DNA from: Escherichia coli
GTDB taxonomy: Bacteria; Pseudomonadota; Gammaproteobacteria; Enterobacterales; Enterobacteriaceae
Direction: 5' to 3' (one strand)
DNA length: 64,000 nt
Assembly (NCBI RefSeq): GCF_003018235.1
Contig: NZ_CP027437.1
Part shown: in pieces, positions 60,268-60,642 of the stretch
Layout: each line of letters starts with the position of its first letter
Numbering within the stretch: position 1 is the first letter of the stretch
Translations under genes and position numbers: made by a program
The notes under the pieces: model-generated
What the model was told of the DNA's origin: nothing
The model's input: only the letters and a program-made list of their open reading frames with translations
Database searches by the model: none

Positions 60268-60642
60268 TCAGGTCCGCGTAATGGGGCAGGCGGTAAAGCG
60301 CATCATTTCACCCAGCGTACGGGTAACCTGGCTAAGTGCATATTCAATGGCAGAAACATCACCAGTCAGCACTACGGCACCGGTAAAACGATCAAGAAAA
60401 CCGATCTCTACAGCGCCTGATTTTGTGGCGATATCGCATGCGATGATAGATGCTTCGCTGGGGGTTATCGTCAGAATGCCAATAGCAGAAACGGTGTCTG
60501 GTAAACCCAATTTCTTAAACAGATCCTTCCCAGGATTGGCGATAACATGTGCCAGCGTGACCTGCTTACCAGGGACATATTCCTGAATCATCCGTTCAGT
60601 TGTGTGCTGAGTTGTCATTATCCCTCCACCATCTGACGCCAC
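60268..60642 (-). CDS. pduU: Bacterial microcompartment shell protein (PduU/EutS-type)
   Basis: Single BMC domain of circularly permuted type; coordinates taken from the ORF track, true start probably an internal Met. Confidence 0.75.

Follow-up and report, generated by a model that had tools for sequence, protein, structure and literature searches.

An intact pduT-pduU junction with a one-base stop/start overlap in an Escherichia coli propanediol-utilisation operon

Overlapping stop/start junctions such as TAATG and ATGA occur in translationally coupled genes of bacterial operons, for example trpE-trpD and trpB-trpA. For the propanediol-utilisation (pdu) shell proteins, solved structures are available for PduT, a tandem-BMC pseudohexamer that bears a 4Fe-4S site, from Citrobacter freundii (PDB 3PAC) and Salmonella (PDB 3N79), and for PduU from Salmonella enterica (PDB 3CGI). 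Here the junction between pduT and pduU was analysed in an Escherichia coli chromosome (contig NZ_CP027437.1, assembly GCF_003018235.1). The window, meaning the whole stretch of DNA that was analysed, comprises 64,000 nucleotides, and all pdu genes discussed lie on its minus strand. An earlier note, made by reading the bases by eye, had reported that the frame near 60.60-60.64 kb differed by two nucleotides from that of the open reading frame (ORF) track, and had raised a local frameshift or a GTG start variant of pduU as possible causes.

Reading frames of the operon tail

The region holds the pduS-pduT-pduU-pduV tail of the pdu operon in its ordinary, intact form. The first of these genes, pduS (61175..62518), encodes a 447-aa RnfC-like Fe-S flavoprotein (256.5 bits with the NCBIfam rnfC subfamily) that carries the RefSeq label '4Fe-4S dicluster domain-containing protein', and its TAA stop lies 2 nt before the ATG of pduT. 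The tandem-BMC shell protein PduT, with 184 aa, is encoded at 60618..61172 (ATG 61172-61170, TAA 60620-60618). The most likely translated form of pduU occupies 60268..60618 (ATG 60618-60616, TGA 60270-60268) and has 116 codons for amino acids. Four nucleotides downstream of the pduU stop begins pduV (59820..60263), also annotated by RefSeq, which encodes a 147-aa member of the EutP/PduV GTPase family (184.6 bits with NCBIfam TIGR02528, cut-off 138); in this lineage the operon ends with this gene. Genes neighbouring the operon tail in the RefSeq annotation are tmaR (yeeX), yeeA, sbmC, and dacD.

The stop codon of pduT and the start codon of pduU form a TAATG overlap at 60616..60620, in which the TAA and the ATG share base 60618. 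In the E. coli type of sequence (60612-60620), the TAA of pduT is followed by an in-frame TGA because the second codon of pduU is ACA, whereas other genera have TAA-TGG. The tandem stop is probably incidental.

ORFs were listed mechanically over 59000-62500, and the minus strand was read over 60200-61260. The ORF track takes the first ATG, GTG, or TTG after a stop as the start of a frame, and the pduU ORF in the track therefore starts at a GTG. The ORF described in the earlier note, with a GTG start and exact limits of 60268..60642 on the minus strand, is present in the mechanical list. Relative to the 116-aa form, it carries an upstream extension of eight codons (60619..60642; GTG GCG TCA GAT GGT GGA GGG ATA) that sits within the last eight codons of pduT. 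As a result, the track ORFs of pduT and pduU overlap by 25 nt (60618..60642) in different frames, and a base-by-base reading of this stretch was confused by two nucleotides.

Translation of the minus strand from 60268 to 61172 in three frames places pduT in frame 0, followed by TAA-TGA, and pduU in frame 2. The two-nucleotide offset is thus real as a difference between the frames of the two genes [(61172-60618) mod 3 = 2], but the bases and the ORFs agree with each other. Exact reproduction of the track ORFs by machine translation was the outcome that the earlier note had named as contradicting its observation, and both ORFs are reproduced exactly. Its preferred reading, that nothing was truly wrong and the bases had been misread, is borne out by the same translation. 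It had named a transcription error as the most likely source of the offset; nothing is wrong with the DNA, but the different frames and the overlap in the track explain the offset better than a slip in transcription does. A local frameshift at the junction is excluded, as both translations are uninterrupted (184 aa for PduT; 124 aa, or 116 aa when counted from the ATG, for PduU) and there is no indel. The GTG is likewise the first codon of the track ORF but not a sequence variant, since the canonical ATG is present, in frame, 24 nt downstream. Hand reading, together with the track's convention of taking the longest ORF, produced the anomaly that the earlier note described. More generally, where the true start of a gene overlaps the gene before it, a track that picks the earliest start codon following a stop makes the gene too long, and apparent frame conflicts arise.

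Comparison with the references that the earlier note had proposed shows two full-length proteins, each collinear with its solved counterparts. PduT aligns without gaps over residues 1-184 to C. freundii PduT (3pac, E=3e-97) and to Salmonella PduT (3n79, E=4e-96). Both halves of the 184-aa chain match single-domain BMC-H proteins (residues 3-80 and 89-177), which gives two BMC domains. Cys38 is present (...VSKTLC38PGKF...) and aligned with the Cys of C. freundii 3pac; according to the established literature on PduT, this residue is a ligand of the central 4Fe-4S cluster. The score of PduT against the NCBIfam equivalog for eut-type PduT (TIGR02526) is 156.7 bits, below the cut-off of 250.3, as expected for a PduT of the pdu type.

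We hold with high confidence that the whole of the observation is explained by an intact operon tail in which pduU starts at the ATG of a TAATG overlap, with the GTG extension a product of the track convention and with neither a frameshift nor a start mutation.

The start codon of pduU

Initiation of pduU almost certainly takes place at ATG 60618-60616, which yields the canonical 116-aa PduU. A GGAGG Shine-Dalgarno sequence for pduU is located at 60623..60627, within the pduT codons Val-Glu-Gly, at a spacing of 4 nt from the ATG. The stretch of 20 nt that precedes the ATG, GGAGG included, forms a duplex of -9.8 kcal/mol with the 3' end of 16S rRNA, and just 0.36% of 4160 20-mers drawn from the pdu part of the window as a background reach -9 or below. 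RefSeq/PGAP annotates pduU with 351 nt and pduT with 555 nt, sharing one base, which by offset corresponds to 60268..60618 and 60618..61172. The exact 116-aa protein with the ATG start is found on at least 1000 public contigs.

The product of pduU is identified as a PduU/EutS circularly permuted BMC shell protein on the grounds of family match, collinearity, and gene position, its gene being located in the pdu operon between pduT and pduV. The 116-aa protein scores 134.7 bits against NCBIfam NF012012 (EutS/PduU subfamily, cut-off 123), with profile positions 3-110 of 111 covered by residues 7-115. The long ORF matches Salmonella PduU (3cgi_A) with E=8e-64, and its residues 10-124 align to residues 2-116 of that chain, so that the methionine encoded by the ATG (residue 9 of the ORF) is equivalent to residue 1 of the reference. 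The Clostridium homologue 4axi likewise has its Met-1 aligned to this methionine.

The alternative that survives best is that pduU initiates at GTG 60642, giving a 124-aa protein whose 8-residue extension (ASDGGGI) is read from within pduT in the other frame. We consider this improbable, although the frame is open here as well as in 31 of 31 outgroup loci, and an exact 124-aa GTG-start PduU has been deposited for 281 contigs in GenBank annotations (e.g. ASX05561.1 and ATC16998.1). The in-frame stop that bounds the long ORF is the TGA at 60651-60649, two codons upstream of the GTG, and the frame reads stop-S-H-V(GTG) at this point. Pairing of the 3' end of 16S rRNA with the 20 nt that precede the GTG amounts to only -0.2 kcal/mol, and the GTG has no Shine-Dalgarno sequence, in contrast to the very strong one before the ATG. 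The GTG itself (60642-60640) consists of the last base of a pduT Met codon and the first two bases of a Trp codon (ATG-TGG). Met and Trp each have a single codon, and pduT therefore imposes the GTG; neither the presence nor the conservation of the GTG tells whether it is used as a start. Any mutation of the GTG would alter Met-Trp of PduT, and the single pduT-silent change that introduces a stop into the extension frame (Val GTG to GTT, base 60627) also takes away the first G of the Shine-Dalgarno sequence. The extension has no counterpart in Salmonella PduU, in Clostridium 4axi, in the EutS structures, or in the family profile; this 111-position profile starts near residue 5 of the 116-aa protein and thus leaves no homologous room for eight further residues. 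Current RefSeq uses the ATG. As a main product, the GTG-initiated 124-aa protein was rejected by the structure alignment, RefSeq, the Shine-Dalgarno energy, and the family profile.

The outgroup consists of 31 loci of other species that were found with a degenerate pattern for the pduT C terminus. It covers Citrobacter, Klebsiella, Salmonella, Raoultella, Phytobacter, Pluralibacter, Pseudocitrobacter, Intestinirhabdus, and Enterobacter, together with Escherichia species that include E. albertii and E. whittamii. The search pattern allowed only variation that is synonymous in pduT, and the sample is biased accordingly. A T[AG]ATG overlap (TAATG or TGATG) and the ATG of pduU are kept in all 31 loci. 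Between the GTG and the ATG, no locus shows a stop in the pduU frame, within a pattern limited to pduT-synonymous variation. All differences within the 24-nt extension fall at pduT wobble positions and are silent in pduT, whereas the hypothetical extension residues vary freely with them across species (S/T/A, D/N, G/R, and I/V/L/M). The comparative data support the ATG start, short of strictly excluding the GTG. With the ATG as the preferred start, the 8-codon extension in the pduU frame is most likely not translated.

A minor 124-aa PduU isoform initiated at the GTG inside pduT has a lower probability still, the open frame in 32 of 32 sequences being the one point in its favour. If such an isoform existed, it would place a Gly-rich 8-residue extension on the β-barrel face of the PduU hexamer, where it could alter the interaction with PduV or the pore.

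The presence of the 124-aa form in public records indicates that some annotation pipelines chose the GTG. Counts and comparisons of the PduU N terminus should use the ATG form, as these records hold both lengths. The 90%-identity cluster returned for PduU includes many EutP/PduV proteins of 147 aa, and its representative is of that length too, which looks like a database clustering oddity with no biology behind it.

Frameshifting and the integrity of the junction

It is very unlikely that both starts are used, or that a rare -1 slip at G-GGA-TAA joins PduT to PduU, so that minor isoforms arise. The one point that could favour a slip is that reading on in the -1 frame after GAG-GGA leads into the pduU frame with no intervening stop. 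A canonical slippery heptamer is absent, and pduT is followed by the tandem stops TAA-TGA. The wobble position of the Gly codon varies (GGA, GGG, GGT, or GGC), and in two species GAG is replaced by GAA, with loss of the GGG at which re-pairing would occur; as a shift site, the sequence is thus not conserved. A programmed -1/+1 frameshift that produces a PduT-PduU fusion was rejected for the missing heptamer and the unconserved re-pairing site, and for the fact that the +1 frame ends after a few codons.

A promoter and terminator scan of 59200-61300 revealed nothing above the shuffle expectation inside pduT or pduU. The sole notable site in this interval was a hairpin between pduV and tmaR.

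In an ungapped comparison of 59300-61300 with the RefSeq E. coli genome NZ_CP104371.1 (2021CK-01784), 10 substitutions were found in 2001 positions; as these are the only differences, insertions and deletions are absent. The pdu part of this interval is carried by 643 of 5426 complete E. coli genomes (~12%), whereas the tmaR side is carried by 5417, from which it follows that the pdu operon is an accessory block abutting tmaR in E. coli. Identity over the 141-nt junction is no lower than 95% in any of the 643 pdu-positive genomes, and in 533 it reaches 99% or more. Neither pduT nor pduU shows the indel or premature stop, relative to intact orthologues, that would mark a frameshifted gene or a pseudogene. 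A real indel near 60.60-60.64 kb that disrupts pduT and/or pduU, as a pseudogene or through a sequencing error, was suggested by the hand reading in the earlier note only and has a negligible probability, given two full-length proteins collinear with solved references, a RefSeq comparison free of gaps, and a junction that many complete genomes share unchanged. No frameshift exists here, and the junction is an ordinary one that had already been annotated.

Operon end and comparison with known systems

At 59720-60263 the operon ends with the 147-aa pduV and, about 100 nt later, past a 13-bp hairpin at 59733-59761, the convergent gene tmaR/yeeX is reached. Neither pduW nor pduX is present at this end. 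The loci of Citrobacter, Klebsiella, Salmonella, Raoultella, and Phytobacter have a 150-aa pduV and, downstream of it, first a gene for an acetate/propionate kinase of 404 aa (PduW; 848 bits with NCBIfam PRK12397) and then a GHMP-kinase-like ORF of 288-300 aa (PduX). The operon end was compared in loci L014 (6405-8647), L002, L010, and L021 of our collection. The E. coli locus L001 and the E. whittamii locus L018 both lack pduW and pduX, and the truncated operon end looks like a trait of the Escherichia lineage. In the literature searched, no directly relevant paper on E. coli lacking pduW and pduX was found.

Elsewhere in the window, matches at the Rfam gathering threshold were obtained for algC RNA, naRNA4 (two matches), JUMPstart, STnc490, the His operon leader (minus strand), and STnc240, with coordinates of 11187-11236, 15626-15793, 21155-21193, 42700-42825, 50052-50175, and 52914-52988. 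This set fits the usual E. coli neighbourhood, with the colanic acid and O-antigen clusters, the his operon, and sbcB upstream of the pdu insertion.

The PduU N terminus differs by lineage. It reads MTTQ(H/L)TTE in E. coli, E. albertii, and E. whittamii, with MTTLHTTE in E. whittamii, and it is three residues shorter in Intestinirhabdus alba (METTERMIQ). The cryptic Escherichia sp. MOD1-EC7003 has a PduU of the Citrobacter/Klebsiella type (MERQPTTD) together with a 150-aa PduV. In the metagenome-assembled genome 'Citrobacter sp. HRGM_Genome_0066', two contigs (L019 and L020) each contain a pduT-pduU junction. The junction of L019 is of the E. coli type (MTTQHTTE) and identical over the 45 nt compared, and that of L020 is of the Citrobacter type (MERQPTTD), which suggests a mixed bin.

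The biological weight of the original observation is very small. With the anomaly gone, all that is left is a textbook case of stop/start overlap in a pair of well-characterised microcompartment shell genes. The one-base overlap and the GGAGG within the upstream coding sequence give pduT-pduU the architecture of a coupled pair. The GGAGG embedded in the last pduT codons would serve the pduU ATG, and ribosomes that terminate on pduT may reinitiate at this ATG or be handed over to it. Judged by this architecture, coupling would link the synthesis of two minor shell proteins.

Compared with PduT of C. freundii and Salmonella, E. coli PduT has the same length of 184 aa and an identical C terminus, with only scattered substitutions between them. 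PduU of Salmonella enterica has the same 116 aa, aligns end to end, and is near-identical from position 7 on, with few substitutions outside the N terminus. Residues 2-8 differ, being of the MTTQHTTE type in E. coli, E. albertii, and E. whittamii and of the MERQPTTD type in Salmonella, Citrobacter, and Klebsiella. The Salmonella gene occupies the same place between pduT and pduV, and loci of other Salmonella subspecies have the same TAATG junction. With coupled pairs of the trpE-trpD and trpB-trpA kind, pduT-pduU shares the one-base overlap, a Shine-Dalgarno sequence within the last codons of the upstream gene, and conservation across genera; it differs in that its coupling is deduced from this architecture.
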